IMG/VR virus record: IMGVR_UViG_3300032240_000412
Coordinates: 32,423-96,422 of that record
DNA from: a virus
Length of the DNA stretch: 64,000 nt
Reading direction: 5' to 3' (one strand)
The notes under the pieces were generated by a model, which worked only from the letters and a program-made list of their open reading frames with translations, made no database searches and was not told where the DNA came from. This document shows positions 25,656 to 46,169 of this stretch, piece after piece. The first letter of the stretch is position 1; each line of letters opens with the position of its first letter. Made by a program: the position numbers and the translations under genes.

Positions 25656-25684
25656 TTGACATTTGGCAGTAGAGCATATATAAT
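25656..25684 (+). promoter_or_regulatory. Consensus sigma70 promoter driving the modification island
   Basis: TTGACA (25656-25661), 17-nt spacer, TATAAT (25679-25684); the predicted +1 coincides with the ATG at 25691. Confidence 0.8.
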
Positions 25685-25704
25685 GTTTATATGTCTACTG
25701 CCAA
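25663..25704. repeat. 17-bp inverted repeat covering the promoter spacer, the -10 box and the start codon
   Basis: TTGGCAGTAGA-g-CATATA / loop TAATGTT / TATATG-TCTACTGCCAA. Confidence 0.85.
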
Positions 25705-26005
25705 TCAACTTGTCGAGCAAATAAAACTCTCAACCGATTTCCAACTAAACAAAAAACGGTTAAAGGAAAAGATCCTAACCGATTTGCACATTCCGTACAA
25801 TAACGGATTGTTCTTGGTTGATCGATCACTTATAGCCTTCCTTAATTCTTGGGAAGATGAAATAATTTATATTGAAGATGTATATCAAAATCCTGTTCAG
25901 GTTAATAGGATTGAATTGTTGACATTGGCCAAACAGCATTATCAACTAGTTATGAATCAATGGCATCAAGAATATGACCAACTTCGTCGAGTTAGAAAAA
26001 TCTAA
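25691..26005 (+). CDS. Hypothetical protein (possibly a tail-fibre assembly chaperone-like protein)
   Basis: 104-aa ORF; first gene of a tightly overlapping operon. Confidence 0.6.
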   Translation: MSTANQLVEQIKLSTDFQLNKKRLKEKILTDLHIPYNNGLFLVDRSLIAFLNSWEDEIIYIEDVYQNPVQVNRIELLTLAKQHYQLVMNQWHQEYDQLRRVRKI

Positions 26006-26798
26006 AGGTGTATTGTATTTTGTATTTGATACTAAAGAATTTAAGTATTCTGAGATTGCCAAAACAAATGTACAATTAATTAACCATTTTTTAAAACTGC
26101 CTGTTACTGTGGTAACGGACAGCGAAACACCAATTGATTTTGCAGTCGATCGAGTGATACGACTAGATACAAGCAACGAAGTCATAAACACCAGATACTC
26201 CAGTACACACAGGACAAGAACACAGTGGCGCAATGGATTTAGACATCAAAGCTATCAGCTGAGTCCTTATACTGAAACATACGTAATTGATGTTGACTAC
26301 GTGGTGCTCAATGACAACTTGCTAAAACTTCCTGTACAGGACTATTGCCTTTACAAGAGTAATGTTTACTTAAACAATAGTGATGCTCATGAAACAATGG
26401 GTATATACAGTTTACCATTTCTTTGGGCCACTGTGTTATTTTTTAAAAAATGTCCTAGAACAGAGTTGATGTTTGGGTTAGTAGAACGCATACAGAGTAA
26501 CTATAATTATTATCGTGCCCTGTACAACATACCAGACCCAGCATTTAGAAATGACTATGCATTTGCCATAGCCGATAACATAGTTGAAGGCTACGCCGAT
26601 AGCGTAAAGCATATACCTTGGTCGTTGACCACAGTAGATAACACCGTCAGTTCTATAGAAGTTAAAGGCAGTAAAGTTTATGTCAAGCAACACAACACAG
26701 CCCATGTGTTGCCAATGATGGATCTACATATATTAGACAAAGTGTATTTGCAGTCAACTCAGCACAAAGATTTTGTAACATCTATTTTAAATGCGTAA
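25974..26798 (+). CDS. Putative GT-A fold glycosyltransferase (GT8-like)
   Basis: SPYTETYVIDVDY (DxD motif after a hydrophobic strand), WATVLFFKK, FRNDYAFAIA. Confidence 0.6.
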   Translation: MTNFVELEKSKGVLYFVFDTKEFKYSEIAKTNVQLINHFLKLPVTVVTDSETPIDFAVDRVIRLDTSNEVINTRYSSTHRTRTQWRNGFRHQSYQLSPYTETYVIDVDYVVLNDNLLKLPVQDYCLYKSNVYLNNSDAHETMGIYSLPFLWATVLFFKKCPRTELMFGLVERIQSNYNYYRALYNIPDPAFRNDYAFAIADNIVEGYADSVKHIPWSLTTVDNTVSSIEVKGSKVYVKQHNTAHVLPMMDLHILDKVYLQSTQHKDFVTSILNA

Positions 26799-27654
26799 AC
26801 ATCCACATCAAGCACAGCAAGGCTTTTTTACTTTTGCTCAGAACAATACTACAACAGATTATCTAGCAATGGCCTACGTGCAAGCAATGAGCGTTAAGTT
26901 AGCCATGCCCGGATCGTTGTATGCAGTAGCGGTAGATAAAGATACATTGTCGTTGATAACAGATCAACACCGACAAGTATTTGATTATGTAATTGAAATT
27001 GATGAAGACTATGCCAAGGATGACGAATGGAAGCTGGCCAACGAGTGGCAGGCTTTTTGGCTGACTCCTTTTAAAGAAACCATCAAACTAGAAGCAGATT
27101 TACTAATACCTGCAGATATATCACATTGGTGGAATGGTTTTAGACTGCGTGATGTAGTATTAAGCACAAACTGCCAAACATATATGGGCACTACTGTTAC
27201 AAGTGACACGCTACATAGAAAAATTTTCATTGACAACAACTTGCCCAATGTCTATAACGGACTAATGTATTTTAGATATAGTCAAATATCCAATTACTTT
27301 TTTAGTGTGGCGAGAGACATATATCAAGATTGGGACAGCGTTAGAAATACGTTAAAGAATTTACACAATATCAAACCGTCTACAGATCTAGTATATGCCA
27401 TCACTGCCATGTTTGTAGGACCAGAGTTTGTTACTCTACCCACCTTGAACTTTATTAACTTTGTTCACATGAAGCCGTCATTGCAAGGATGGAAGCAAGA
27501 TGACGATTGGACTGACTCGGTCATGACAGAATTTGATTTACCAATAATACGAATCAACAACAGGAATCAATATCATCCAATACACTACCATCAGAAAAAT
27601 TTTATAAAAAAGGAGGTTGTAGATGAATACCAACGAAGACTTGGCATTAGCTGA
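26791..27654 (+). CDS. Putative GT-A fold glycosyltransferase (GT8-like), paralog of the upstream gene
   Basis: TPFKETIKLEADLL (ExD), NVYNGLMYF, STDLVYAI, FVHMK. Confidence 0.55.
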   Translation: MRKHPHQAQQGFFTFAQNNTTTDYLAMAYVQAMSVKLAMPGSLYAVAVDKDTLSLITDQHRQVFDYVIEIDEDYAKDDEWKLANEWQAFWLTPFKETIKLEADLLIPADISHWWNGFRLRDVVLSTNCQTYMGTTVTSDTLHRKIFIDNNLPNVYNGLMYFRYSQISNYFFSVARDIYQDWDSVRNTLKNLHNIKPSTDLVYAITAMFVGPEFVTLPTLNFINFVHMKPSLQGWKQDDDWTDSVMTEFDLPIIRINNRNQYHPIHYHQKNFIKKEVVDEYQRRLGIS

Positions 27655-27988
27655 AGCATTTGCCAGCATAGTCCCACAGCCAGAGTACAAAATAGAATAT
27701 AGACTCTACTATGACAACGCAGGCAAGCCCACTTGCATGAGTTCAAATAATCATCCAGAGGGTCAATATGTCATAATAGACAAAGCCACATACGATCGAG
27801 CAATATATAATAATCTCAAAGTGGTAAACGGAACACTAATTACCATTGACACTAGCTCCCAACATCGTGTACAATTACAAAAGGTGGAGTCTGGGCCTTT
27901 TCGCACAGCAAAGAATAACGCTGGCATATTACTAACCAAAGACGAACAAGTAGAACAAACAGATTACTATGACCACAGAAATAATTGA
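27623..27988 (+). CDS. Hypothetical protein
   Basis: 121-aa ORF overlapping both neighbours. Confidence 0.6.
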   Translation: MNTNEDLALAEAFASIVPQPEYKIEYRLYYDNAGKPTCMSSNNHPEGQYVIIDKATYDRAIYNNLKVVNGTLITIDTSSQHRVQLQKVESGPFRTAKNNAGILLTKDEQVEQTDYYDHRNN

Positions 27989-28865
27989 TGTAGCAGACTT
28001 AGACTGCATATACTTAACATATGATGAACCTAAGAAAGAAGAGTTTTGGATCAAGATTCAAAACATGGTGCCATGGGCCAAGCGAGTTGATGGAGTCAAG
28101 GGCAGTGATGCCGCACACAAAGCCGCGGCTGATGCTAGTGATACTGATAGATTTGTTCTTATTGATGGCGATAACATTCCTGATGCTGAATTTTTTAATC
28201 TACAACTATCCCTGGATGATCACAATCGTGATTGTGTATTTCGTTGGCGAGCACGTAATGTGGTTAATGGACTAATGTATGGCAACGGAGGTATGAGTTG
28301 TTGGACCAAGGACTTTGTACACGATATGAAAACTCATGAATCCAGCGACGGATCATCTGCCAATGATGTGGAGTTTTGTTTCTACCCCAACTACTGGGCA
28401 ATGAATGACTGCTACAGCACTACATATCCCAATGGTAGCCCACTACATGCTTGGCGTGCCGGCTTCCGCGAAGGAGTTAAGATGTGTTTGGACAGAGGAG
28501 TTAAGCCCACTGTTGCAGAGTTTGAAAGTCGTGTTAACAATCGTAATTACGATAATCTATGTATTTGGCAAACTGTTGGAGCCGATTCTGATAATGGGTT
28601 TTGGTCAATTTATGGAGCACGTCTCGGCACATACCTTACCATGATCGAAGGGTGGGATTATAAAAAAGTACAAGACTTTGACGAGTTAAAAGCATTGTGG
28701 ACACAATATGAAAATCATGATGCTGACCACTGCACAGAAATTGGACAAGTATTACGTACAAGACTAGGTTTGCCGATTGTGGATATGGATCCAGACGAAA
28801 GCCGGTTTTTCAAACATCATTATCGTAGCAACTTTAAAAATAAAGGACCAATGATTTGTGAGTAA
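27969..28865 (+). CDS. Putative GT-A fold glycosyltransferase
   Basis: AHKAAADASDTDRFVLIDGDN resembles the GT2 'N..A......D.D' pattern; also NGLMYGNGG and AWRAGFREGVK. Confidence 0.6.
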   Translation: MTTEIIDVADLDCIYLTYDEPKKEEFWIKIQNMVPWAKRVDGVKGSDAAHKAAADASDTDRFVLIDGDNIPDAEFFNLQLSLDDHNRDCVFRWRARNVVNGLMYGNGGMSCWTKDFVHDMKTHESSDGSSANDVEFCFYPNYWAMNDCYSTTYPNGSPLHAWRAGFREGVKMCLDRGVKPTVAEFESRVNNRNYDNLCIWQTVGADSDNGFWSIYGARLGTYLTMIEGWDYKKVQDFDELKALWTQYENHDADHCTEIGQVLRTRLGLPIVDMDPDESRFFKHHYRSNFKNKGPMICE

Positions 28866-30243
28866 ATCAGATTTCATGACCGATGCTGAAAACATGCGAG
28901 ACCTATTGGGTCCTGCTCTTTGTTTGGCCAAATGGAAACAACTAAGCCTGCATTTACCAACTGGTTTAAACAATAGCTGTTACCACCCGCCGTTGCACTC
29001 AATAGACCCAGACGAAGTAAAAATCAATCCTGGCGCACTACATAATACAGCACATAAAAAAGAACAGCGTAAGATTATGTTACGCAACGAAAAACCCAGC
29101 GAATGCAGTTATTGTTGGAACATGGAAGCCAATGGTCAATTAAGTGATCGACACTATCGCAGTGGTGAGCCTTGGGCCTCTGAAGACTATGAAAAAATTA
29201 AAAATTCAACAGGAGATGAAAATGAAGTTGTTCCGTCCTACGTCGAGGTTAACTTTAACCATGCGTGTAATCTCAAATGTAGTTATTGCAGTCCTCAGTT
29301 TAGTAGCACTTGGGGTCAAGAAGTTGACAAGTTTGGCGGATTCCCAACAACGCCTATTCACAACGATCCTAGCCATTTTACTGGTCGCAATCGTCCTATA
29401 CCACATTCCCACGATAATCCTTATGTTGATGCATTCTGGCAATGGTGGCCAAGTCTTTATCCGCATCTAAAACATTTCCGCATGACCGGTGGTGAGCCAC
29501 TAATGGATCGGAATACATATAAAGTGTTTGACTATGTACTAGCGTTACCTAAGCCAGACCTGCACTTGAATGTGACCAGCAACTTCAGCGTAGAGCCGCA
29601 ATTATGGAACAAGTACTTTGACTATGTAAAAAAATTATGTAATACCAATATTGAGCATTTCATGCAGTATGTTAGTCTTGACACTGGTATTCCCGAACAG
29701 GCCGAGTATGTTCGTAGTGGCATGAACTACCATAGAGTTATGAGTCGTGTCAATCATTACCTAACAGACATTCCTTATAGGAATAGTCTGACGTTTATCA
29801 TTACAATGAATAACCTCAGTGTACTTGGCCTACAAAGATTACTGGATAGAATCTTGGAATTACGTAAAGCACATAGCACTACATACCAAAGAGTTTGGTT
29901 TGATACACCAGTGCTACGTAAACCAGAATGGCAAAGTCTACAGATACTTCCATCGGTATACAGCGAGCATTTAGAACGTATTGCAGACTGGATGGAACTA
30001 AATTTAGAAACACCAGAACGCCCATTCCAGGGATTTAAGGATTACGAAGTACAACGTCTAAGAAGAGACATTGCCTGGATGAAAAAAGGCAGTGAATTGG
30101 ACCCTGAATATGTTAAACTGCAACGTGCTAACTTTTACAGGTTCTTTAACGAGCACGATAAACGACGTGGAACCAACTTTGAAAAGACATTCCCACAGAT
30201 GATTGAATTTTGGAAAGAATGTAGATACTATGCACAGCAATAA
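28858..30243 (+). CDS. Radical SAM protein 1 (N-terminal twitch/SPASM-like Cys cluster)
   Basis: CNLKCSYC and GGEP; N-terminal C...SCYH...CSYCW. Confidence 0.9.
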   Translation: MSKSDFMTDAENMRDLLGPALCLAKWKQLSLHLPTGLNNSCYHPPLHSIDPDEVKINPGALHNTAHKKEQRKIMLRNEKPSECSYCWNMEANGQLSDRHYRSGEPWASEDYEKIKNSTGDENEVVPSYVEVNFNHACNLKCSYCSPQFSSTWGQEVDKFGGFPTTPIHNDPSHFTGRNRPIPHSHDNPYVDAFWQWWPSLYPHLKHFRMTGGEPLMDRNTYKVFDYVLALPKPDLHLNVTSNFSVEPQLWNKYFDYVKKLCNTNIEHFMQYVSLDTGIPEQAEYVRSGMNYHRVMSRVNHYLTDIPYRNSLTFIITMNNLSVLGLQRLLDRILELRKAHSTTYQRVWFDTPVLRKPEWQSLQILPSVYSEHLERIADWMELNLETPERPFQGFKDYEVQRLRRDIAWMKKGSELDPEYVKLQRANFYRFFNEHDKRRGTNFEKTFPQMIEFWKECRYYAQQ

Positions 30244-31390
30244 CTGTCCGTTGTATAGCAAAGGCTTGTATGTTGAAAAAATAAACAGCACAGAATCACG
30301 AGTGAGTATGTGCTGTTATCAATCAATGAGTCCGCAAGTATATACCAACATAGATTTTGATAACAATGACTATCTGATTAAGTTACGCAACGATGCAGAG
30401 TCTGGAGAGAAAATTCCCGAGTGCCAGGGTTGTTGGACAGCAGAAAAGTTTGGTATTAAAAGCTATAGACAAGGACAGATCGAATCTTTTAATTTTCAAA
30501 ACATCCCCGTTGATAAAACTGTAGAATTAATTAGCTTGTTATACAACTGTGAAAATACCTGTAATTTGAAATGTATCACATGCGGTCCACGTTACAGTTC
30601 GGCCTGGAGACAAGAGTACCAAAAATTAAATAAACTTGGTGAGTGGGACATTGTATCATCTAAGCAGACTTCTTTAAAAAATGATATTAGTTGTACATTG
30701 GATTTATCTAAAACAAAACTAATACATTTTCAAGGCGGCGAGCCATTACTAACCAAGGATCACGAAGCGGTATTACAGCAGGCATTAGATCAACACAATC
30801 TAACAGAAACTATTGTTAGCTACAACACCAATGGCACAGTATTCCCTAGTGCTAATACACAACAGCTTTGGAAAAATGCAAAGCTGGTAAAATTATACTT
30901 TAGTATTGATGCCATTAAAGATCAATTTGAATATGTTAGATACCCAGGCAACTGGCAAGCAGTTGAGGAAAATTTACTAAAGATTAAAAACACTATTCCC
31001 AATGTTTGGATTGAAATAGGTGTAACAGTGGGACTTGCTAACATATTCTATTTAAAAGATATTTTAGATTGGAGAGAAGCTAATTTTAATACTACCTTGT
31101 CTGGAGATCCAATCGGAATATACTTTAATCTGGTCAGTGATATAGAACCTGGAACAAGCGGACTAATGAAATTAGAAAATGCCAGTGGTAAAATCAAGGA
31201 TCAAGCATTGGAGTATATTGATTCGTTAAGATCATACAGTAATGTCACAGGCATAAACGAAATGAAGAATGCGCTAATTGATGCAACAGAAAACAACAAG
31301 TGGATTGACTTTTTAAACCAATTGGATAAAATTAGGAACACCAATTGGAATAAATCGTTGAGTAAATTACATAGATGTGTTACAATATAA
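30230..31390 (+). CDS. Radical SAM protein 2
   Basis: CNLKCITC, GGEP, YNTNGT, SIDA; N-terminal C...CC...CQGCW. ATG 30230 is preferred over TTG 30203. Confidence 0.9.
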   Translation: MHSNNCPLYSKGLYVEKINSTESRVSMCCYQSMSPQVYTNIDFDNNDYLIKLRNDAESGEKIPECQGCWTAEKFGIKSYRQGQIESFNFQNIPVDKTVELISLLYNCENTCNLKCITCGPRYSSAWRQEYQKLNKLGEWDIVSSKQTSLKNDISCTLDLSKTKLIHFQGGEPLLTKDHEAVLQQALDQHNLTETIVSYNTNGTVFPSANTQQLWKNAKLVKLYFSIDAIKDQFEYVRYPGNWQAVEENLLKIKNTIPNVWIEIGVTVGLANIFYLKDILDWREANFNTTLSGDPIGIYFNLVSDIEPGTSGLMKLENASGKIKDQALEYIDSLRSYSNVTGINEMKNALIDATENNKWIDFLNQLDKIRNTNWNKSLSKLHRCVTI

Positions 31391-31396
31391 AATATT

Positions 31397-32746
31397 ATGC
31401 CCAAATTTAACAACGAAACAGATTTAGAATATAAGCGCAGAGTAATTGACATCAAGTCAAGTAGCTTCTGCGGAGCAAAATGGTATAACGCTACTATTTG
31501 GTTAGGTAGCGGTATGACCACAAGTTGTCATCATCCGTTGCCACACAAGGTTGATGTTGATGACGTAATACGAAACCCTAAAGCATTGCACAACACGCAA
31601 AAGAAAAAAATGGAGCGTGAACAGATGCAGAAAGGAGAACGCCCAGCAGGTTGTGAGTATTGCTGGAAGATCGAAGATATTGGCAGAGACAATATCTCAG
31701 ACAGAGTCTACAAAACAGTTATATACACAGATGAGGAACTAAAACATGCCCATGCTAGGCCATCACGCGATGATGTGGATTTACGAACGCTTGAAATTGC
31801 TTTTGATCGTACATGTAATTTTGGGTGTAGTTACTGTAACCCTGCTTTCAGTAGCACTTGGGTTAGGGATATCGACACTAGAGGTCCTTATACCGGCCTC
31901 ACTTCAGACGGTAGGAATCATTTTACTCATAATCATGGAAGCAGTCAGTTGTACCGTTTTGGTGAACACAATCCGTATGTTGAAGCGTTCTTTAAGTGGT
32001 GGGACACGTCTTTAAGTAAAACCTTAACCGAGTTACGACTCACCGGCGGCGAGCCATTGATGTCAGGCGATACCTGGAAACTGTTAGAATGGTTCAAGAC
32101 ACACGATACAGACATGAAGTTTGCCATGAACAGCAATCTTGGTGCCAAGGACGAGCTAATAGATCGATTGATTGACGCTAGTCATAGTATCAAACATTTT
32201 CATCTGTATACCAGCAATGAATCAGTAAGTCAGCAAAGCGAGTATATTCGAGATGGACTAGTTTGGGATGACTGGGCCAATAATGTAGAGAAAGTATTGT
32301 CTAACGGAAACTTAGAAGGTTTTCATATGATGTGTACTATCAATGCATTATGTTTAGACTCCCTGGATAGTCTATTAGACTGTTGCCTAAACTGGAAACG
32401 CGAGTACGGAAAAGACTTTCCTACATTTTCACTAAATATATTGCGCTTTCCAAGTTTTCAATCACCTCTGGTCCTGCCAGACAACATACGCAATACCTAC
32501 AAACTTAAACTACAAGCATGGTTTGATGCAAACAAGGACGATCCTATGTTACATCAATTTGAGTTAAATCAATTGCAACGACTTATTGATTATTTGGACG
32601 TAGTTAAAACTCCGCATGTTGGTGCGGCAGAGCAAACAGTATTACAGCAAGACTTTAAAAAGTTCTACACACAATACGACGAGCGTAGAGGTAAAAACTT
32701 TACAGAAACGTTCCCTACACTAGCAGAATGGTATAACACACTATGA
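31397..32746 (+). CDS. Radical SAM protein 3 (paralog of protein 1)
   Basis: CNFGCSYC and GGEP; N-terminal CGAKW...SCHHP...CEYCW. Confidence 0.9.
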   Translation: MPKFNNETDLEYKRRVIDIKSSSFCGAKWYNATIWLGSGMTTSCHHPLPHKVDVDDVIRNPKALHNTQKKKMEREQMQKGERPAGCEYCWKIEDIGRDNISDRVYKTVIYTDEELKHAHARPSRDDVDLRTLEIAFDRTCNFGCSYCNPAFSSTWVRDIDTRGPYTGLTSDGRNHFTHNHGSSQLYRFGEHNPYVEAFFKWWDTSLSKTLTELRLTGGEPLMSGDTWKLLEWFKTHDTDMKFAMNSNLGAKDELIDRLIDASHSIKHFHLYTSNESVSQQSEYIRDGLVWDDWANNVEKVLSNGNLEGFHMMCTINALCLDSLDSLLDCCLNWKREYGKDFPTFSLNILRFPSFQSPLVLPDNIRNTYKLKLQAWFDANKDDPMLHQFELNQLQRLIDYLDVVKTPHVGAAEQTVLQQDFKKFYTQYDERRGKNFTETFPTLAEWYNTL

Positions 32747-34077
32747 CAGACAAATTAGAAAACTATTACGAGAACTATGACTATGGTGCTCGTAAACCTG
32801 TATACATTAAACAAGAAGATTTAAGACCAGATCAATTTGATAGGTTAATTAAAAGCGATAAATTCTGCATGTTGCCGTGGACGCACATGCATGCCTTTCC
32901 AGATGGTCGCGCATATAGTTGCTGTTTGTCAGAGATTGATCAATCAATTGGCAACTTAAAGAATAACACGCTACGTGAAATATGGAACGGCAAAGAATAC
33001 AAGACCATGCGCCTTAATATGCTGAATGAACAATCCAGTGCCGCATGTGAACGTTGTTACGAGCAAGAATCCAACGGGTTCTTTAGTATGCGTAATAGTG
33101 CAAATAAAAACTTTGGTCACCATATTGGACTAGTAGATGACACCAAAGAAGACGGTACCTACGAAGATTTCAAACTACGTTACTACGACATTCGATTCAG
33201 TAACCTATGTAACTTCAGTTGTCGTACTTGCGGCAGTATTTTTAGCAGTAACTGGTACAAGGACGAAGTTAAAGCAGGCTGGAAACCAAATCATCCTCAG
33301 ATCATGTACGCTGGCAAAAACGAAGACGACATGTGGGAGCAGATGCAAGAACATATTCCTCACCTGGAACAAATTTACTTTGCCGGCGGCGAACCACTTA
33401 TCATGAAAGAACACTGGAACGTACTGGACGAATTGGTTAAACGAGAAATGTTTCATGTACGATTGATCTACAACACTAACTTCTCAGAAATGAAGTTTAA
33501 AGGCCGTGACGTATTTGAAATGTGGAAACTGTTTGATTGTGTTAGCGTTGGCGCCAGCTTAGATGGCAGTTATGAGCGCGGCGAATACATTCGTAAAGGA
33601 CAGGATTGGCGACAAACAGTTGAAAATCGTGAACGTATGTTGCAAGTATGTCCTAATGTGGACTTTTATGTTAGCAGTACACTAAGTCTTTACAATGCAT
33701 TGCATATTACAGACTTCCATCGAGAATGGACAGACTTGGGGCTGGTTCGCCCACAAGATTGGAATATTAACATTTTACAAGATCCTCCTAGAGATCGTAT
33801 TGATGCGTTACCTTATCAGCTCAAACTCAGAGTTAAAGAAAAATTTGAAAAACATCTAGAGTGGTTAGAGCCGTTGGACACTTTGTCGAGGGCAACTCAA
33901 GGTTATAAGAGCGCCATTAATTTTATGATGCAAAACGATGGCACAGATGAGTTGGCTAACTTCTTTAGAACTAACAACAGACTTGACAAGATCCGCAACG
34001 AAGACTTTTTTGCAATTTTCCCAGAGTTGGCAGATTTACAAACCAATTGGAAAACATTAAATGAGCGACCTGCCTAA
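32743..34077 (+). CDS. Radical SAM protein 4
   Basis: CNFSCRTC, GGEP, YNTN, ASLDG; N-terminal CMLPW...CC...IGNL....L.EIWN...CERC. Confidence 0.92.
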   Translation: MTDKLENYYENYDYGARKPVYIKQEDLRPDQFDRLIKSDKFCMLPWTHMHAFPDGRAYSCCLSEIDQSIGNLKNNTLREIWNGKEYKTMRLNMLNEQSSAACERCYEQESNGFFSMRNSANKNFGHHIGLVDDTKEDGTYEDFKLRYYDIRFSNLCNFSCRTCGSIFSSNWYKDEVKAGWKPNHPQIMYAGKNEDDMWEQMQEHIPHLEQIYFAGGEPLIMKEHWNVLDELVKREMFHVRLIYNTNFSEMKFKGRDVFEMWKLFDCVSVGASLDGSYERGEYIRKGQDWRQTVENRERMLQVCPNVDFYVSSTLSLYNALHITDFHREWTDLGLVRPQDWNINILQDPPRDRIDALPYQLKLRVKEKFEKHLEWLEPLDTLSRATQGYKSAINFMMQNDGTDELANFFRTNNRLDKIRNEDFFAIFPELADLQTNWKTLNERPA

Positions 34078-35278
34078 GACGATTTGTATGCTTCCTTGGA
34101 TTAGTATCGAAACTAGTCCAATCGGAAATGCAAGACCCTGTTGTCTTGCACATGACGAAATTAAAAAACCTGATGGCACAATGTACGACTTGAATGTTGA
34201 TACTTTGAGTACCATGTACCGCAGTGAGTATATGCAAGACTTACGTAGGCAATTTCGTGCAGGGGAAAAACCTGCAACCTGTAGTCGTTGTTGGGAAGAA
34301 GAAGATGCTGGACGTACAAGTAAACGCATGAATACTCGTGTGCGTTTTAAACACGAGTTTGATAAAGTGGACTTTGATAACGACATACCAGATCAACTTT
34401 GGTTTGTTGATCTTAAGTTGGGTAACATCTGTAATCTTAAATGTCGTATTTGCGGTTCCTGGTCTAGTAGCCAATGGGCGCAAGAAGAAATGGCCTACAT
34501 CAAAGGGCGTGCCAAACCCAAGACACACATTGCCTATCAATGGTTAAAACAAGGACAATGGCCACGCAACGACAACAGTGGGACATTTTGGAACGACATG
34601 CGAGAGTTGTTGCCACATATCAAGTACTTTGAGTTCACTGGTGGTGAACCATTTATGATTCCTGAACACTTTGAATTACTACAATATGCCGTAGATCAAG
34701 GCCACAGTCAGAACATAGAAATACACTACAACACCAATGGCACACAGTACCCAGAAAAGTACATACACCTTTGGAAATCTTTTAAGTATGTTGAGATTGC
34801 ATTTAGTATCGACAACGTAGGTCAACGCTTTGAATACGAACGTTACGGTGCCAAATGGAACGAAGTAGAAGCAAACATTGCTAAATTTAAAGAACTAAGA
34901 CAAGCAAACAATAATATCACATTGCAAGTTTGTATGACTATCAATGCACAAAACGTTTACTATCTAGAAGACCTATGCAACTGGGTAAGTCAACAAGGAT
35001 TCAATTATGAATACTTTAATATGTTACATGATCCAAAGTATCACAACATTGGGCACATGACACCTGCCGCACAGCGACTTGTCATTGAACGTCTTGAATC
35101 AGGAACTTTTAGTACCAAGCACAGACAAGAAATTGATAAACTGATACAATTTATAAAAAATGGCCCTGGCAGTGACGGCAGTAGATTCTTGTTTGAAATG
35201 AAACAAACTGATGCCTATCGTAAACAGAATTTTGCAGAAACTCACCCGGAAATAGCAAAGGCCATGGGCTATGAGTAA
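34061..35278 (+). CDS. Radical SAM protein 5
   Basis: CNLKCRIC, GGEP, YNTNGT; N-terminal CMLPW...PCC...CSRCW. Confidence 0.92.
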   Translation: MSDLPKTICMLPWISIETSPIGNARPCCLAHDEIKKPDGTMYDLNVDTLSTMYRSEYMQDLRRQFRAGEKPATCSRCWEEEDAGRTSKRMNTRVRFKHEFDKVDFDNDIPDQLWFVDLKLGNICNLKCRICGSWSSSQWAQEEMAYIKGRAKPKTHIAYQWLKQGQWPRNDNSGTFWNDMRELLPHIKYFEFTGGEPFMIPEHFELLQYAVDQGHSQNIEIHYNTNGTQYPEKYIHLWKSFKYVEIAFSIDNVGQRFEYERYGAKWNEVEANIAKFKELRQANNNITLQVCMTINAQNVYYLEDLCNWVSQQGFNYEYFNMLHDPKYHNIGHMTPAAQRLVIERLESGTFSTKHRQEIDKLIQFIKNGPGSDGSRFLFEMKQTDAYRKQNFAETHPEIAKAMGYE

Positions 35279-36590
35279 ACCCGCTACACTATGCATGGCT
35301 CCTTGGGTACACACATACCTAAGTCCGCAGACCGAGCGCAGAATGTGTTGCGCCAGTAGAGAGCCTGCACAAAACTTTCAGCAGTATATCGACACCAGCG
35401 CCGGTTCTGGCAAGTATATACCTATCACCTTGGACGAACATTGGAACGGTGACCACATGCGCTCTGTGCGAAAACGCATGATGTCCGGCGAAACACTACC
35501 CGAGTGCGAAGTATGTAATGATCGACTGCTGAATACTTCTGTTTACCGTAGTTATTTTAACAGCCTGTTTGGTCATAAGTACAATGACGCTATGTCAGCC
35601 ACAGACGACACAGGTTTTACAACGCTAAAGCCTGTTTCATGGGATTATAGATTTAGCAATCTTTGTAATTTCAAATGTCGTATGTGCGGAGATATGTTGT
35701 CTAGTGCTTGGGAAAGTGAGCAACGGCAACATAATATGATTAATTGGCAGGATCCAAAAAATAATTGGATGGACCCTGATATCAAAAAACAAATTGAACA
35801 ATTCCAATCTCAACAAATCGAACAAGAGTTCTCTCTTGCTGTTGAAGAGCACCGTGTTGAAGAAGTGTATTGGGTAGGCGGCGAGCCACTAATGTACGAA
35901 CAACACTGGCGCTATATGAAGCGCATTATTGAATTGGGAGACGGACAGAATGTTTATGCTAGGTACAATACAAATCTCAGTAGGGTCGATTATAGGGGTA
36001 TTAATCTCTATAGCGATATTCTTAACAGGCTACGCGACTGGCAAATATGTGCGAGCCTGGACGGTACAGGACCAATTGGTGAATACATTAGAACTGGCCT
36101 TAAATACGATGAGTGGCATGAGAACTTCAATCAAGCGGTTGCAATCAGACGTCACGCACGTCAAGTCAGAATTGACTTTACGCTCACTTTGCCCGGAATG
36201 TTCGAAGTTACACGTATTGAACAACTCGCAAGACGATTCGGAGTCGACGTTCTTGCAAAAGTAATTTTTAGTTTTAGCCCGGACATAGTTATGAGCCCGT
36301 TAGCACTACCCAGAGATGTGTTACATCCTTGGATAGATGAAATATTGGGTGACACCCCAGGGGGTATTAACCATGTACCTGATAACAGTCCTCTACGAGA
36401 CATACTTGTCCAGCTAAAAACTAGACCTACTTTTGAAGAACAATGGCCCACAGAATATCAATCAGCCATTGCTCGCGGTAAAGCCCGTGTGCTAAAATTA
36501 GAACAAATCCGTACTCAAGCTGTCACTATGACAGACATATTGAGTGAGCGTCCGGATGTATTGAAATGGTGGATGTCAATTGAAAGTTAA
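35271..36590 (+). CDS. Radical SAM protein 6
   Basis: CNFKCRMC, GGEP, YNTN, ASLDG; N-terminal CMAPW...CC...CEVC. Confidence 0.92.
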   Translation: MSKPATLCMAPWVHTYLSPQTERRMCCASREPAQNFQQYIDTSAGSGKYIPITLDEHWNGDHMRSVRKRMMSGETLPECEVCNDRLLNTSVYRSYFNSLFGHKYNDAMSATDDTGFTTLKPVSWDYRFSNLCNFKCRMCGDMLSSAWESEQRQHNMINWQDPKNNWMDPDIKKQIEQFQSQQIEQEFSLAVEEHRVEEVYWVGGEPLMYEQHWRYMKRIIELGDGQNVYARYNTNLSRVDYRGINLYSDILNRLRDWQICASLDGTGPIGEYIRTGLKYDEWHENFNQAVAIRRHARQVRIDFTLTLPGMFEVTRIEQLARRFGVDVLAKVIFSFSPDIVMSPLALPRDVLHPWIDEILGDTPGGINHVPDNSPLRDILVQLKTRPTFEEQWPTEYQSAIARGKARVLKLEQIRTQAVTMTDILSERPDVLKWWMSIES

Positions 36591-37716
36591 AGTAATATTA
36601 CGCAACCCGTTAGATAAAAAAGATCTAGTAGACTACAACATAGAGTCAACAGATTCTGCATTGTCACGTGACTGGGTACAAGCATTAAAGTTGACTCTGC
36701 AACATGGTAATTTAATAGAAAAAAACTTTTGCTTCATGGGCTTTCCACGTACAGCAAGAAATCTTGCTTACTTGTGCAACGAACTCAATGCTAATATCTA
36801 CAAAATTAATCTGTTTAATAGAACACAAGAGTGGCAACGGGCTGGACTTAAATCTTATGTGATTGAAGAATATTTTACACCCGACGTTGTTAGGTTTGGT
36901 GACGAGTATCCATTGGGTTATGATGATAGTAACTTGGGACTTGGGTTGAAGCACGAAGTAATGAACAAGTTACACAATCACTTTGAAATTCTTCAAGGCA
37001 CAGTTTGGGGACTAAGCGACTACTATAAGATTGCTGACTACGAAACCAAATATGCTATTCGTCAGTTAAACAACTTATGCCATGAAATGGAGAATCTTGT
37101 ACTAAGTCAACGCAAGCAAATCATTGCACCCGAGTGGACACGCCCTAGTCAAATTACAACATTCCTACACGCAGAACGTCACGAGTTAACAATGGAACAC
37201 CGGCAAGGATTTAGTACCAACGGATATGATCGCAAGTTTGGTCACGTCTATATGCATTGGACACAAATTGGCAAAACCTTGTATGAAGTATTCCGGGACG
37301 AAAACGCACCTAAGTTAACAGACACAGTATGCGAAGCAATCAACGAACTTAAATTCTACAGCGGAGAGTTTGATGTAGAATGGGGCAGAGATCTAACACA
37401 CGGTGGCGACAATCAATGGTACACTGATATGATGGATGGCTTTTATGCTTGGCTAGAACGCAACGGCAAAGATCGTAACGACCCAATGCTGAGTCTGGGA
37501 CATTTAGAGCTAGGCTACATTCCCCTTAAAGAAAACTTTGGTGCAGTCGAGCACGATACTGTTTGGAATATACTAAGCAATCACTTAGACATCTTCAAGA
37601 TTGAAGTAGATGGTGTTAGCAACACATTTGAATATTGCTGGAATGACCTAGACTACAAACAAAAACAAATTGACATGATGAGGCCCGGATATGATTACAG
37701 TAGCAGGCGGCGATAG
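36580..37716 (+). CDS. Hypothetical protein in the radical SAM operon
   Basis: 378-aa ORF with a TTG start overlapping the previous stop; conserved-looking motifs NKLHNHFE, LNNLCHEME and QIGKT. Confidence 0.65.
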   Translation: MKVKVILRNPLDKKDLVDYNIESTDSALSRDWVQALKLTLQHGNLIEKNFCFMGFPRTARNLAYLCNELNANIYKINLFNRTQEWQRAGLKSYVIEEYFTPDVVRFGDEYPLGYDDSNLGLGLKHEVMNKLHNHFEILQGTVWGLSDYYKIADYETKYAIRQLNNLCHEMENLVLSQRKQIIAPEWTRPSQITTFLHAERHELTMEHRQGFSTNGYDRKFGHVYMHWTQIGKTLYEVFRDENAPKLTDTVCEAINELKFYSGEFDVEWGRDLTHGGDNQWYTDMMDGFYAWLERNGKDRNDPMLSLGHLELGYIPLKENFGAVEHDTVWNILSNHLDIFKIEVDGVSNTFEYCWNDLDYKQKQIDMMRPGYDYSSRRR

Positions 37717-38494
37717 TTTTGTTTTTGGCAGTGAGCTACACGACTGTGGTCCACACTGGAGTAGCAGTACTTTTCCTGCACTGCTAGCAAATGATGGCTA
37801 CTTGTGTGTGGCATGGCCCGGATATGGCAATGACTCTATAGCACGTTCTATAATACACACCTGCGAGCGTTTACGTAACGAAGAAAAAATGGTAATAGTA
37901 TCGTGGACTTTTCCTGGGAGGTACGAGTTTAGATTTGCTTACGACACAGGACAAAAAACAAGTCCCTGGTATACAATTAATTCTTGGACTATAGAAGAAG
38001 ATTCGTCAGTGATAGAAAAAGAATTTATCACAAAAAATGACAGTATTCTAAAGCACCAACTTGACACAATAGAAAAAGCCAAGTCTACTGGTGTGCAAGA
38101 TTTTGCCAAAACATTTTATCGACATGTAGGCTCAACAGAGTACTGGGAAATTTACAGCAGTCTTAAAGAAATTGTCTACCTGCAAAACTATCTTAAAGTA
38201 AACAATATTCCTTATATGTTTACCTGTGCCGACAATATACTATTTGAAAACCATACTGTAAGAAAAGCCGACGGAACCATATCAAGTCTTGTTAACCAAA
38301 TTGATCAAGACAATTGGTTTTGGTTTCCAGCTGGTACTAGCAAATTCGACACACGAAAACCAAGAGGTTTTTATCAATGGGCAGTGGAAAATAAATACCC
38401 TATAGGAACCACACATCCCTTAGAGCAAGCCCATGCTGATGCGGCACAATTAATGAAAGACAAATTCAATGAACTGGTTAAAAAATCTGTATAA
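37691..38494 (+). CDS. SGNH/GDSL-like hydrolase or acyltransferase
   Basis: Block I GDSFVFG, block II G.GND, and C-terminal HPLEQAH. Confidence 0.65.
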   Translation: MITVAGGDSFVFGSELHDCGPHWSSSTFPALLANDGYLCVAWPGYGNDSIARSIIHTCERLRNEEKMVIVSWTFPGRYEFRFAYDTGQKTSPWYTINSWTIEEDSSVIEKEFITKNDSILKHQLDTIEKAKSTGVQDFAKTFYRHVGSTEYWEIYSSLKEIVYLQNYLKVNNIPYMFTCADNILFENHTVRKADGTISSLVNQIDQDNWFWFPAGTSKFDTRKPRGFYQWAVENKYPIGTTHPLEQAHADAAQLMKDKFNELVKKSV

Positions 38495-38570
38495 TCGTAT
38501 CATGTTAGAAATACGTTACCGCAAGAAACTCAAAGAACTACGCAAACGCGACCCGTTTATCTACAAATGA
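38469..38570 (+). CDS. 33-aa basic peptide MNWLKNLYNRIMLEIRYRKKLKELRKRDPFIYK (not in the ORF track)
   Basis: It fills the gap between the two SGNH genes, and its TGA overlaps the next ATG (ATGA at 38567-38570). Confidence 0.7.
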   Translation: MNWLKNLYNRIMLEIRYRKKLKELRKRDPFIYK

Positions 38571-39100
38571 TATTTGTAAACGGTGATAGTTTTACTTTTG
38601 GTGAAGAGTCATCTGTAGCATGGCCTAGTATTTTGCCAACGACAGTAAACATTGCTGTGCCTGGAGCAAGCAATGATTATATTGTACGTAGTACCGTCGA
38701 GTATCTTGAAAATAATGTTATAGACAAAGCAATAATAGCGTGGACTACACCCGATAGGATTGAACTAGGAAAAAAACATTTAACACCAACTAGTCAAGGG
38801 CGTTATGGAGCGATCTGCGATCAAGTATTCGGAGACTGGGACAATGATTGGGCAGTAGCAAAATTCCATGCTCAAGAAACGATGCTACATGGTTACTTGT
38901 CTAGCAAAGGAATACAGCACATATTTGTAAAAACATTTAACGTACCCAGCGTTGATAAAGAATATTGGATAATGAGTAGCATGGTAGAATGGATGGGCGA
39001 TTGCCCCAAGGGCCCAGGCGGACATCCGCTAGAACTAGGGCATCAAAGAATAGCAAAGAAGATCAATGAACATATTAGGCATCTCGGCTGGATTTCATGA
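38567..39100 (+). CDS. SGNH/GDSL-like protein
   Basis: NGDSFTFG, NIAVPGASND, GGHPLELGHQRIA. Confidence 0.7.
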   Translation: MIFVNGDSFTFGEESSVAWPSILPTTVNIAVPGASNDYIVRSTVEYLENNVIDKAIIAWTTPDRIELGKKHLTPTSQGRYGAICDQVFGDWDNDWAVAKFHAQETMLHGYLSSKGIQHIFVKTFNVPSVDKEYWIMSSMVEWMGDCPKGPGGHPLELGHQRIAKKINEHIRHLGWIS

Positions 39101-40565
39101 TGCGGCCGTTACAGTAATCAAAGACAATGAAATAGTCTTTGCTGGACACGCAGAACGATACAGTAAAATAAAAAACGATCCTCACATTAATGATAAATTA
39201 ATTGGAGAGGCATTGGAATTTGGCAAACCAGATGTGGTGGCGTATTACGAACGACCCTGGGTGAAAAAACTACAACAACTATATTCCGGACAATACAATG
39301 AAGCGTTCAGTGTTACTAATTATACTTTGGGTCAGTATCTGCGTCAACATATATCTAATCCTGTTTATCTCAAGCAATTACTACGATGCCCTCGAAAATA
39401 TATGTCCCATCATCATAGTCACGCCGCAGGAGGATTCCAGACCAGCCCCTACACGAGAGCCACTGTGGTTGTAATTGATGCTATTGGAGAACTAGACACT
39501 ATATCAATCTGGGGTGCAGAATACGTAAATGGTCAAGCCAAGTATACAAAACTGTGGGGACAACGCTACCCACACAGTATTGGATTGTTTTACAGCGCAA
39601 TGACCAAACGTGTGGGACTCAGGCCCTTGGACGAAGAATACATAATGATGGGCATGGCGGCCTATGGTGAATCGGGATTTGGTGATCTACTGTTGAAAGA
39701 TTTTGTATCCAACGAATCAGAAATTGAGTTTAAAGACAATTTGCATTTGGGTGTTGCGCCTGGATATTTAGATTATGTATCAGATATGGATTTGGCCGCA
39801 GGCGCACAAGATGTCTGCGAACAGTTGGTATATAATGTAATGAAACGTGCCAGAGACTTTAAATGGAGCAACAACTTAGTTTATATGGGCGGTGTGGCAC
39901 TTAATTGTTTAGCCAATAGACGTTTAGGAGAATATTTTGAAAACATTTGGATTATGCCTAATCCTGGCGATGCTGGTAGTAGCCTTGGGTCTGCCGCTTT
40001 GGTTCATGGAGGTAGAATTAACTGGACAAGTGCTTATCTCGGTACTGACATTCCTGGTGATTACCCCGTTATGGATATTGTGGATCAGTTACTTGCTACA
40101 CAAATTGTTGGAGTGGCATCCGGACGAGCCGAATTTGGCCCAAGAGCTTTGGGCAACCGCAGTCTCTTGGCGGACCCGAGAGGAAAAGAAATAAAGGATC
40201 GAGTAAATGAAATCAAACGAAGACAACAATTCAGACCATTTGCGCCAGTCATTCTGGAGGAGCATGTTAGCGATTATTTTGTTATGCCTAACGGCTTCAG
40301 TGACAGCGGGTATATGCAAGTCGTCGGTGATTGTAGGTATCCTGACTTATTTCCTGCTATCGTTCACGCTGATGGGACTAGTCGTATACAGACAGTTGCA
40401 AAAAATGGATCAGGAATAAGACAACTATTAGAAGCATGGTATAGCAAAACAGGCTGTCCAATGTTATTGAACACTTCATTAAACATTAGAGGAGAGCCAA
40501 TGGTAAATGATCGTAGCGATGCAGATCGTTTTGAGCAGTTGTATAAAATAAAGGTAATGTCATGA
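39066..40565 (+). CDS. O-carbamoyltransferase (NodU/CmcH/TobZ family)
   Basis: ILGIS..HDAA, ERYS..K, HHHSHA, DAIGE, MGMAAYG, GGVALNC, GDAG, EFGPRALGNRS, RPFAP, HADGTSRIQTV, LLNTSLNIRGEPMV. Confidence 0.95.
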   Translation: MNILGISAGFHDAAVTVIKDNEIVFAGHAERYSKIKNDPHINDKLIGEALEFGKPDVVAYYERPWVKKLQQLYSGQYNEAFSVTNYTLGQYLRQHISNPVYLKQLLRCPRKYMSHHHSHAAGGFQTSPYTRATVVVIDAIGELDTISIWGAEYVNGQAKYTKLWGQRYPHSIGLFYSAMTKRVGLRPLDEEYIMMGMAAYGESGFGDLLLKDFVSNESEIEFKDNLHLGVAPGYLDYVSDMDLAAGAQDVCEQLVYNVMKRARDFKWSNNLVYMGGVALNCLANRRLGEYFENIWIMPNPGDAGSSLGSAALVHGGRINWTSAYLGTDIPGDYPVMDIVDQLLATQIVGVASGRAEFGPRALGNRSLLADPRGKEIKDRVNEIKRRQQFRPFAPVILEEHVSDYFVMPNGFSDSGYMQVVGDCRYPDLFPAIVHADGTSRIQTVAKNGSGIRQLLEAWYSKTGCPMLLNTSLNIRGEPMVNDRSDADRFEQLYKIKVMS

Positions 40566-41422
40566 CACAAAGAATTTTAATTATGGGCCTACCAGGTTCA
40601 GGTAAAACCACACTAGCAGGCGCACTTAAACGCTATTTAGAAGAACACGGCGATTTAGAAAAAATTAATCCTCAGCGAATACTAAACTACGAAGGAATCG
40701 CAGGGCCTGATTTTTATAAGGTAGGAGTAGATTGGTTCAATGCCGATGATGTACGTAGAAAATTCAATGATTGGGACTTTAGTAAAGAAGGTCGCATACG
40801 TCAAAGTTTACGTATGTTGCAATTTGCAATTGAATGTTCTGGCGAGTTTGTAATCTGCGACTTTGTCGCGCCCCTAGTTGAAATGCGTAACAACTTCAAA
40901 GCAGACTGGACCATATGGGTAGACACTATTCGTGAAGGTCGCTATGCTGATACCAACGCGGCCTTTGTTGAACCTGAGGTGTATGACTTCCGTGTAACAG
41001 AACAAGATTGTGAAAAATGGGCTGAATTTATTGGCAACCACATTATTGAAAATCGTAGACGCCCTGTATTTGATTGGAAGCGAGAAACAGTACAGATGTT
41101 GGGTCGTTGGCAACCTTGGCATGATGGACACCGTGCCTTGTTTGAACGCTTAATACAACGTACAGGGCAGGTAGTTATTCAGATACGCGATGTTCAAGGT
41201 TGGCAAGGATCAAATCCGTTTGAAGTAGAAAAAGTTAAGAAGTTTATTCGACGCGATTTAGATCCTATCTATCAAGGACAGTATGAAATACAAGTAGTGC
41301 CTAATATTGTACACATTGGTTGGGGTCGTGGTGTAGGTTATACTAGCGGTGAAGAAACGTTTGATGAAACAATTACTGATATCAGTGCTACCAAGATTAG
41401 AAAAAGCCTAGGGTTAAAATAA
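40562..41422 (+). CDS. Fusion of an APS-kinase-like P-loop kinase and an HxGH nucleotidyltransferase
   Basis: N-terminal GLPGSGKTT, NADDVR, DFS.EGR.RQ, FVAP; C-terminal MLGRWQPWHDGH and ISATKIR. Confidence 0.8.
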   Translation: MTQRILIMGLPGSGKTTLAGALKRYLEEHGDLEKINPQRILNYEGIAGPDFYKVGVDWFNADDVRRKFNDWDFSKEGRIRQSLRMLQFAIECSGEFVICDFVAPLVEMRNNFKADWTIWVDTIREGRYADTNAAFVEPEVYDFRVTEQDCEKWAEFIGNHIIENRRRPVFDWKRETVQMLGRWQPWHDGHRALFERLIQRTGQVVIQIRDVQGWQGSNPFEVEKVKKFIRRDLDPIYQGQYEIQVVPNIVHIGWGRGVGYTSGEETFDETITDISATKIRKSLGLK

Positions 41423-44981: not shown

Positions 44982-45048
44982 TCAATACCCAGTATATCCT
45001 GAGGATGATGGTTACGATAGATTTCGTAACCCTTACAGTCCTGTTTAA
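44971..45048 (+). CDS. 25-aa peptide MNPDQYPVYPEDDGYDRFRNPYSPV (not in the ORF track)
   Basis: It exactly fills the convergence gap, is preceded by TAAATA, and its TAA shares the TTAA palindrome with the stop of the convergent DegT gene. Confidence 0.55.
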   Translation: MNPDQYPVYPEDDGYDRFRNPYSPV

Positions 45049-46169
45049 TAGTTTAAAGAGCCATTGCGGCAAAATCCTTGTACTGCACTGGCAATACGTT
45101 CTACTTCTTCGTCTGACAATTCGGGATATATTGGTAAACTAAGCGCAGTACGACTGAGAGTCTCTGAATTACTTACATCGGTTAGTTTAGGAGTATGATG
45201 ATTTCCTGCCACTGGATAATCGTACAACGGATGTTCGTAGTGTATTTTTGTTTCTATGCCAGATGCTTCTAACCATTGTTGGCAGTGATTACGATCATCA
45301 AGTTTGATAACATACTTGTGCCAGGCATGTTCTACATCTTTATCTACCCACGGAGTAGTAGCAAAGTCAGACAGTTCAGTTGTGTAGTATTTGGCTATTT
45401 CAGTTCTACGTCTTTGCCATGCATCAAAATGATCTAGCTTTACTAGCATTTGAGCACAGTCGCTTTCGCTCATTTTACTGTTGGTACCAGTTTCATAATG
45501 ATCCAATGCTTTACCGTTGTTGCGTAAACTGAGCAATCTTGTATATACATCAAAGTCATCAGTTAGTATCATACCGCCTGACCCATAGTTGGGCAAGTTC
45601 TTTGTAGGATCAAAACTCAGCAAACTGATGTCACCAAAACTGCCACTAGGGCGACCTTTATACCGTGCGCCAAAACTCTGTGCCGCATCTTCAATTACGC
45701 AAAGGCCAGAATTCCAAAAATCCACAACAAGAGAAAATCTATCGTAGTTGATCATGTTACCGTACAAGTTAACATACATGACAGCATCAACCATGTCATC
45801 AAGTTTACCGTAGACTGTTTCTACATCTAGAATATTGTTGTCGGGATTGATGTCGCAGAATATAGGATTGTTGCCAGAGCGCAATACACTATTCAACGTG
45901 GCAATAAAGCTCTGTCCAGGAATCAAGATATTGCTTTGCGTTAGTTCCAATGCTTCTAAAGCAAATATCAATCCCTGTGTGCAACTATTAACAGCAACAG
46001 CATATTTGCGTTGACACCGATGTGCAATTTGACGTTCAAATTCGCGAGTGTACTCGCCATCTAACACCTGTCCACTTTGATAGACAGTGTCAGCGGCGTT
46101 GAGAAGTTCTTCTCTGAGATCGTTATACTGTCTTGGTAGACCAGTAAACGGAATTTTTAAGCCACTCAT
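45045..46169 (-). CDS. DegT/DnrJ/EryC1/StrS PLP-dependent sugar aminotransferase
   Basis: VNSCTQGL, VIEDAAQSFGA, SFDPTKNL (PLP lysine), RNNG, GTNSKM, LSLPIYP. Confidence 0.95.
   Translation of the reverse strand: MSGLKIPFTGLPRQYNDLREELLNAADTVYQSGQVLDGEYTREFERQIAHRCQRKYAVAVNSCTQGLIFALEALELTQSNILIPGQSFIATLNSVLRSGNNPIFCDINPDNNILDVETVYGKLDDMVDAVMYVNLYGNMINYDRFSLVVDFWNSGLCVIEDAAQSFGARYKGRPSGSFGDISLLSFDPTKNLPNYGSGGMILTDDFDVYTRLLSLRNNGKALDHYETGTNSKMSESDCAQMLVKLDHFDAWQRRRTEIAKYYTTELSDFATTPWVDKDVEHAWHKYVIKLDDRNHCQQWLEASGIETKIHYEHPLYDYPVAGNHHTPKLTDVSNSETLSRTALSLPIYPELSDEEVERIASAVQGFCRNGSLNY

Follow-up and report, generated by a model that had tools for sequence, protein, structure and literature searches.

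The window analysed here, 64,000 nucleotides corresponding to bases 32423-96422 of the linear, 96.4-kb viral contig IMGVR_UViG_3300032240_000412 of IMG/VR, carries a row of six co-directional open reading frames (ORFs) on the + strand, which fill positions 28858-36590 and encode radical S-adenosylmethionine (SAM) proteins with a twitch domain ahead of the catalytic core, p1 to p6. The six are members of one family and stand, in an order that is conserved among related phages, within an operon of about 16 kb behind tail-fibre genes. On balance, and with a confidence little above even, we read this array as a system for the radical tailoring of sugars in a phage-made glycan. Sugar tailoring is favoured because the steadiest partners of the array resemble sugar transferases or sugar-decorating enzymes, because the twitch domain has its nearest counterpart in a cyclitol dehydrogenase, and because the Cys-ligated type of cluster predicted for this domain is one proposed to accept an electron.

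All six proteins contain the motifs CxxxCxxC and GGEP and four further cysteines near the N-terminus, which are invariant in the six-way alignment; the latter are spaced C-x19-C-x41-C-x2-C in p1 numbering, with C22, C41, C83 and C86 preceding the core triad C137/C141/C144. In NCBIfam, p1-p6 match the model NF033640 (N_Twi_rSAM, twitch domain-containing radical SAM protein) end to end, with 216-405 bits against a curated cut-off of 170 bits, which a scan of the contig confirmed; because the E-values of these matches range from 1e-64 to 3e-121, the six-fold occurrence of the motif and family signature is, judged from the sequences, far beyond chance. A search of 14 control genomes found no NF033640 member above cut-off (0/14). 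p4 has more than 7500 homologs. The invariant motifs, together with a modelled p5 core that resembles many solved radical SAM structures (Z >8), place the proteins in the radical SAM superfamily. Coordinates, alignment and family scores thus bear out the first-pass annotation of the stretch, which had described six consecutive genes with CxxxCxxC, GGEP and an N-terminal Cys cluster. The proteins lie outside the housekeeping families (MoaA, QueE, NrdG/PflA activases): in the hidden Markov model searches of NCBIfam, p1-p6 reach at most 31 bits with MoaA (cut-off 284), 24 with QueE (260), 20 with NrdG (131), and 37 with the viperin model NF038283 (180). With every model far below cut-off, an identity as MoaA, QueE, NrdG or viperin is rejected; the named SPASM maturase models of NCBIfam are likewise all far below cut-off.

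The N-terminal domain is, on profile evidence, homologous to the twitch domain of BtrN. Its profile has BtrN as the sole significant sequence match in the PDB (E 2.6e-4, BtrN residues 165-237), and the four N-terminal cysteines align onto BtrN C169/C187/C232/C235, which we take to be the ligands of the auxiliary cluster in that enzyme. In a profile of the whole family, its own positions 13-87 pair with the C-terminal twitch region of BtrN, and in p4, p5, and p6 Pfam detects a SPASM-type domain ahead of Radical_SAM. The auxiliary-cluster domain noticed in the first reading is therefore a true twitch homolog, and it does lie N-terminally: it precedes the core in all six proteins and across an alignment of 97 family members, in which the triad and the CxxC pair never vary and the first two cysteines reach at least 90% conservation. 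Among orthologs of related loci, 112/112 retain GGEP and the full 4+3 Cys pattern, and 13 of the 15 divergent extra copies retain GGEP and both Cys sets. Outside the core motif, only four cysteines are conserved in either the 6- or the 97-sequence alignment; a SPASM domain with two auxiliary clusters, which has seven or eight, is thus rejected. By analogy, the putative auxiliary [4Fe-4S] cluster is probably fully Cys-ligated and suited to accept an electron; the auxiliary cluster of BtrN has four Cys ligands, and a role as electron acceptor during a two-electron oxidation has been proposed for it (PMC9012708). SPASM and twitch domains are defined as C-terminal extensions (PMC9012708), and the SPASM/twitch megacluster includes some members with conserved cysteines N-terminal to the barrel, without solved structures (RadicalSAM.org; PMC9477430). 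The layout, previously called permuted, is therefore real in all six proteins but is not new, having been curated already as NF033640 and remarked upon in PMC9477430; p1-p6 are further members of a catalogued, biochemically blank family.

By sequence, p1-p6 are old paralogs. Their pairwise identities are 18-32%, and in a maximum-likelihood tree of the 97 family members none of them is the nearest neighbor of another; a deep branch with full support sets p1 and p3 apart from p2, p4, p5, and p6, in agreement with the subtypes proposed at first sight (1 and 3; 4, 5, and 6; a divergent 2). Given the low identity and the scatter over the tree, a recent local duplication is rejected. Among 30 viral loci found with p4, 24 are close relatives (L001-L024), and these jumbo-phage contigs, at least 24 in number, share the arrangement p1-[slot]-p3-p4-p5-p6, with identities of 57-86%. 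Between p1 and p3, the slot may be empty or contain one or two divergent members of the family, and in some cases there are additional copies between p5 and p6. The family had been called expanded, which is right in that several paralogs are present; they are, however, ancient and scattered over the tree, forming a fixed row of five with one variable slot, and not local duplicates. The operon structure and the conserved order make it plausible that the paralogs act sequentially on one substrate.

The occupant of the slot in the window, p2, has no ortholog in L001-L024. It sits on a long branch of the tree and belongs to a sub-lineage of 119 homologs with at most 51% identity; locus searches with p2 or with an alignment of this sub-lineage returned no viral locus. 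Its start is most likely the ATG at 30230 (386 aa) and not position 30203, because the homologs of the sub-lineage all keep the first cysteine 6-10 residues after the methionine. A public call for this gene (P0392, 379 aa) begins downstream of the first twitch cysteine and probably truncates a putative cluster ligand.

The phage itself, an uncultured one, is represented in part, with a CheckV completeness of about 27% for the source contig. Its baseplate wedge protein shares 33-35% identity with those of jumbo myoviruses, among them Atu_ph07, Phosso, SCTP-2, CBB, and GAP32; near-complete relatives measure 320-354 kb, and complete ones carry 6-8 N_Twi_rSAM members per genome. By PHROGs, the genes ahead of the array include ones for baseplate and tail-fibre proteins. 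Megablast found no close DNA relative of the array among cultured phages. A single ORF of 4269 aa (7549-20358, +) stands between the gene for the baseplate wedge and those for the fibres.

The operon around the array is compact: from gtA3 to kinNT (Table 1), neighboring genes either overlap or are at most 6 nt apart. L001-L024 conserve the block fib-o104-gtA1-gtA2-o121-gtA3-p1-[slot]-p3-p4-p5-p6-o378-sgnh-peptide-sgnh-carbT-kinNT. A promoter-like site precedes the ATG of o104 by 7 nt, and exact-consensus sites recur near the same position in 9 related loci; the overall count of such sites in the region is not above that of shuffled sequences. If this site is used, transcription of the operon by the host RNA polymerase could be independent of the late fibre genes.

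Table 1. Features of the array, its operon and the adjoining island edge, in window coordinates.
Feature	Position	Strand	Assignment and remarks
Promoter-like site	25656..25684	+	sigma-70 consensus, TTGACA-17-TATAAT, 12/12 match; operon entrance
o104	25691..26005	+	small conserved protein, first operon gene; 42-58% in 22 related loci
gtA1	25974..26798	+	gtA2 paralog, tentatively GT-A/GT8-like
gtA2	26791..27654	+	tentatively GT8-like glycosyltransferase
o121	27623..27988	+	conserved small protein; 30-49% in 20 loci
gtA3	27969..28865	+	probable GT-A-fold transferase; overlaps p1 start by 8 nt
p1	28858..30243	+	N-terminal-twitch radical SAM, clade A; NF033640 308 bits; orthologs 62-77% in 23 loci
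p2	30230..31390	+	N-terminal-twitch radical SAM, clade B, variable slot, rare sub-lineage; NF033640 216 bits
p3	31397..32746	+	N-terminal-twitch radical SAM, clade A; NF033640 303 bits
p4	32743..34077	+	N-terminal-twitch radical SAM, clade B; NF033640 405 bits; Pfam SPASM at residues 42-106, E 8e-13
p5	34061..35278	+	N-terminal-twitch radical SAM, clade B, modelled copy; NF033640 359 bits
p6	35271..36590	+	N-terminal-twitch radical SAM, clade B; NF033640 282 bits; orthologs 71-81%
o378	36580..37716	+	conserved protein, overlaps p6 stop; 35-88% in 20 loci
sgnh1	37691..38494	+	SGNH/DUF6071-like, GDS motif; weak DUF6071 match, E 0.006
33-aa microprotein	38469..38570	+	ends RKRDPFIYK; between SGNH-like genes, just upstream of carbamoyltransferase; unannotated
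sgnh2	38567..39100	+	SGNH/DUF6071-like; weak DUF6071 match, E 0.0012
carbT	39066..40565	+	NodU/CmcH-type carbamoyltransferase; Pfam Carbam_trans_N E 9e-36, Carbam_trans_C E 1.5e-48
kinNT	40562..41422	+	P-loop kinase + HxGH nucleotidyltransferase fusion; PHROG 10255 'kinase' E 4e-42
DegT-family aminotransferase + NDP-sugar (nucleoside diphosphate sugar) epimerase/dehydratase	45045..47094	-	Pfam DegT E 2e-86; Epimerase E 6e-43; GDP_Man_Dehyd E 4.5e-34

Upstream of the array, the three gtA genes encode GT-A-like proteins. gtA1 and gtA2 are related to each other (hhalign probability 98.4%, E 6.6e-15); gtA1 is without a sequence match in Pfam, NCBIfam or the PDB, and the profile of gtA2 matches glycogenin (GT8) marginally over residues 3-108 (E 0.004-0.007). 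gtA3 has more than 8000 homologs, of which the best 120 are all viral, with at least 77% identity, and contains an invariant DxD (D66/D68). Its AlphaFold2 (AF2) model (predicted local distance difference test score, pLDDT, of 80.8) gives weak fold matches that are nearly all of the GT-A type: BcsA at Z 6.7, the hyaluronan synthase of a chlorovirus at Z 6.5, and SunS at Z 5.6; a Foldseek comparison with the capsid glycosyltransferase of PBCV-1 gives E 0.02. Other proteins have no assignment from the searches: o104 has no significant Pfam match, o121 no family match, o378 no match in Pfam, PHROGs, NCBIfam, the Atlas or the PDB sequences, and o379 and o739 none in any library scanned. Downstream, the DUF6071 assignment of sgnh1 is weak in the window, and its counterparts in the cultured Ralstonia phage RsoM2USA are significant members of that family. 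carbT scores 135 bits as NodU-like, far below the equivalog cut-off. kinNT gives weak matches to adenosine phosphosulfate (APS) kinase, NMNAT, and cytidylyltransferase, with specific family matches far below cut-off, and could by its sequence serve in the activation of a sugar phosphate or in the formation of an activated sulfate; a sulfotransferase was not recognised near it. The DegT and NDP-sugar dehydratase pair lies at the far edge of the island and occurs in few relatives only, with thymidylate synthase and dihydrofolate reductase (DHFR) beyond. A Tyr/Pro-rich ORF of 25 aa (44971-45048, +), noticed in the first reading, has no family match, and no look-alike in the fetched loci, few of which reach this region.

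Some of the neighboring genes suit a different product, in which the operon would make a modified nucleotide or decorate the phage DNA by sugar or carbamoyl hypermodification, with the radical SAM enzymes acting on a nucleotide-linked moiety. The kinase-nucleotidyltransferase fusion, the thymidylate synthase and DHFR just past the island, the two further radical SAM genes and the DUF6071 gene among DNA-repair genes upstream on the same contig, and the resemblance of the p5 core to viperin (Z 12.3) all fit such a pathway. We nevertheless hold it to be quite improbable: with the viperin, QueE, and MoaA models the proteins stay far under the cut-offs, the scans of the operon recognised neither a DNA glycosyltransferase nor a DpdA-like gene nor a hydroxymethylase-kinase pair, and the block is syntenic with fibre genes, not replication genes; by established biochemistry, moreover, a thymidylate synthase beside DHFR would point to ordinary dTMP (thymidine monophosphate) synthesis.

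The structure predicted for p5 narrows the choice little. The AF2 model is confident (pLDDT 95.1; predicted template modelling score 0.92), and its core (residues ~110-370) matches BlsE, viperin, SkfB, anSME, and CteB at Z 11.7-12.7. BlsE is the top core match (Z 12.7), tied with the other four; as far as the model goes, this is a tie that gives no specific function, and the viperin resemblance is confined to the generic core. The presence of SkfB, CteB, and anSME among the closest matches agrees with a second alternative, which we regard as unlikely, namely that p1-p6 are protein or peptide maturases which epimerise, cross-link or otherwise modify the fibre proteins, neighboring proteins or the 33-aa peptide of the operon. 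The operon directly follows the fibre genes, and the peptide is strongly conserved: its ORF (38469-38570; also L032:11168-11278) is kept in 19 related loci as well as in RsoM2USA, where it again stands upstream of the carbamoyltransferase, and the C-terminal RKRDPFIYK, with its DPFIYK end, is invariant. This peptide is, however, free of Cys, encoded about 1.9 kb from the array between the SGNH genes upstream of the carbamoyltransferase, and not found in either the locus of Vibrio phage K566 or a metagenome-assembled genome (MAG) contig, both of which have arrays. Also to be set against maturation are the absence of any peptide-recognition domain from the Pfam matches of p1-p6, the steady company of GT-A-like proteins, and the N-terminal domain, whose only PDB sequence match is a cyclitol dehydrogenase. 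A homology of the peptide to SxtK/DUF5989 is unsupported, with no Pfam match even at E 10.

Sugar tailoring, the reading we prefer, also finds support in contexts outside the close relatives. In RsoM2USA, the order is DUF6071, radical SAM (RsoM2USA_202, the p3 ortholog, 53% identity), DUF6071, the peptide ending in DPFIYK, DUF6071, and carbamoyltransferase (48%); in K566, family members are interleaved with two GT8 genes that are significant in Pfam. A locus search with the p3 ortholog yielded 120 further viral loci. In a wider set of 48 viral loci, each 15 kb or longer with a p3-type gene at its centre and examined with 8-kb flanks, all 48 hold 2-8 family members, 37 the gtA1/gtA2 pair, and likewise 37 gtA3. 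The family is very large: the profile of the six paralogs collects 25,457 clusters (at 50% identity) at E <=1e-3 and 6,557 at E <=1e-30, and the family appears to be concentrated in big aquatic phages. Many of the clusters are fusions of two or three copies; one member is fused to GT2 (P0148), and fusions to GNAT also occur. Among the top representatives (P0121-P0147, P0240), many have 800-1466 aa and comprise two or three complete N_Twi_rSAM units; these may be true fusions, or overlapping neighbor genes merged by gene callers.

The MAG contig mentioned above, the 18.3-kb Verrucomicrobiales contig NYWG01000227.1 (L038), has six family members above cut-off and four other radical SAM genes, together with a carbamoyltransferase (43% identity to carbT) and a PP-loop ATPase. 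Since the family occurs in only 2 of 301 sampled Verrucomicrobiota genomes, this contig may represent phage DNA binned in error, or else a recent transfer. Its pairing of about ten radical SAM genes with a carbamoyltransferase and a PP-loop ATPase, with no glycosyltransferase recognised among the ORFs scanned, is one of three points that favour a free small molecule, aminoglycoside-like or cofactor-like, that would be used during infection in place of a polymer-attached glycan. The second is that twitch enzymes such as BtrN and the sugar-acting BlsE, DesII, and AprD4 belong to antibiotic pathways; the third, that carbamoyltransferases of the NodU/CmcH/TobZ type act on small molecules. With GT-A-like genes as the steadiest partners, a conserved position behind fibre genes, and no scaffold-forming enzyme (cyclase, non-ribosomal peptide synthetase or polyketide synthase) recognised, a free product of this kind seems to us highly doubtful.

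A further group of radical SAM genes lies upstream of the window (G000:C1:22077-24000; L044:8077-9998, -): two genes of other subfamilies and a significant DUF6071 gene, in the midst of gp46/gp47-like DNA-repair genes and a gene for a PDDEXK nuclease. Of the two, one has 39% identity to a non-N_Twi radical SAM gene on the MAG contig.

If sugars are indeed the substrates, the system would work as follows. One translationally coupled operon would express the array together with the GT-A-like transferases, the SGNH/DUF6071 proteins, the carbamoyltransferase, and the kinase-nucleotidyltransferase. Each paralog would bind two [4Fe-4S] clusters, one on CxxxCxxC that cleaves SAM and another, ligated entirely by Cys, on the N-terminal twitch domain; each would abstract a hydrogen atom at a different position or residue of the sugar or sugar chain, and the second electron would pass to the auxiliary cluster, as in BtrN. 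The net outcome would be oxidation, or else an epimerisation, deoxygenation or decarboxylation that follows on from it, and the product a heavily edited, carbamoylated, possibly acylated glycan on a surface component of the phage or host. The conserved position behind the fibre genes is the sole pointer to the target of this glycan. Tentatively, and as something possible more than expected, we suggest that the five conserved paralogs and the slot copies form a radical 'assembly line', which would rebuild the sugars of a virion glycan, most likely on the fibre proteins encoded just upstream, and yield a carbamoylated glycan of non-canonical structure, with a role in adjusting host recognition or in shielding the fibres.

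Several observations weigh against the tailoring of sugars. Most of the studied SPASM/twitch relatives are peptide maturases, and the fold search ties the sugar-acting BlsE and DesII with the peptide- or protein-acting SkfB, anSME, and CteB, and with viperin. The glycosyltransferase calls for gtA1-3 are weak (Z <8; E 0.004; no Pfam or NCBIfam match), and gtA1 and gtA2 have no detectable homology to the GT8 proteins of K566. A carbamoyltransferase is found within +/-8 kb in only 3 of the 48 wider loci, a count that is limited by the flanks, the gene mostly lying beyond them. Other family members are fused to TPR, Sel1, and S8 subtilase, which would also suit maturases. Finally, no characterised NF033640 member was found in the literature on N-terminal twitch domains, on radical SAM arrays of jumbo phages, or on RsoM2USA.

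Should the assembly line exist, it would provide the first function for NF033640 and the first viral glycan-tailoring system dependent on radical SAM enzymes, and reaction types new to the superfamily could well be involved. Phages retain 5-8 diverged copies in fixed order beside host-recognition genes, with both predicted iron-sulfur sites intact; identifying the substrate would give chemistry to thousands of unannotated genes, and could reveal the chemistry by which large phages decorate themselves or their hosts. Bench tests are feasible because carriers exist in culture: Ralstonia phage RsoM2USA and the Vibrio phages nt-1 and K566.

Among the known systems close to this one are the host-recognition clusters of pelagimyophages, which contain glycosyltransferases and radical SAM cassettes (PMC7029224); these likewise lie beside the tail-fibre module of T4-like aquatic phages (PMC7029224), but are mentioned there in passing, without an analysis of family, twitch domain or row, and the present phage belongs to a jumbo lineage (~330-350 kb). 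The SPASM maturases anSME, SkfB, CteB, and PqqE are of the same superfamily branch, the Pfam SPASM model recognises the N-terminal domain, and the cores match at Z ~12; they have seven or eight auxiliary cysteines, whereas p1-p6 have one auxiliary motif of four, the reverse domain order, and neither a recognised peptide-binding domain nor an adjacent Cys-bearing precursor. BlsE, DesII, and AprD4 occur in a similar setting of sugar genes, and BlsE is the best match of the p5 core; the sequence matches of p1-p6 are, however, far below the cut-offs of these families, whose members act singly in bacterial antibiotic pathways, whereas the phages considered here have arrays of 5-8 paralogs. From NF033640 itself nothing separates p1-p6, which resemble the family end to end above cut-off, with the twitch domain ahead of the core; the curated model is silent on phage arrays and on function. 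BtrN (2-deoxy-scyllo-inosamine dehydrogenase; PDB 4M7S/4M7T) has its twitch domain at the C-terminal end and resembles p1-p6 in the core only generically, and p1-p6 exceed it in length by 130-190 residues and have an additional helical region at the C-terminus; what the two share is the CxxxCxxC core and a homologous twitch domain with four aligned cysteines.

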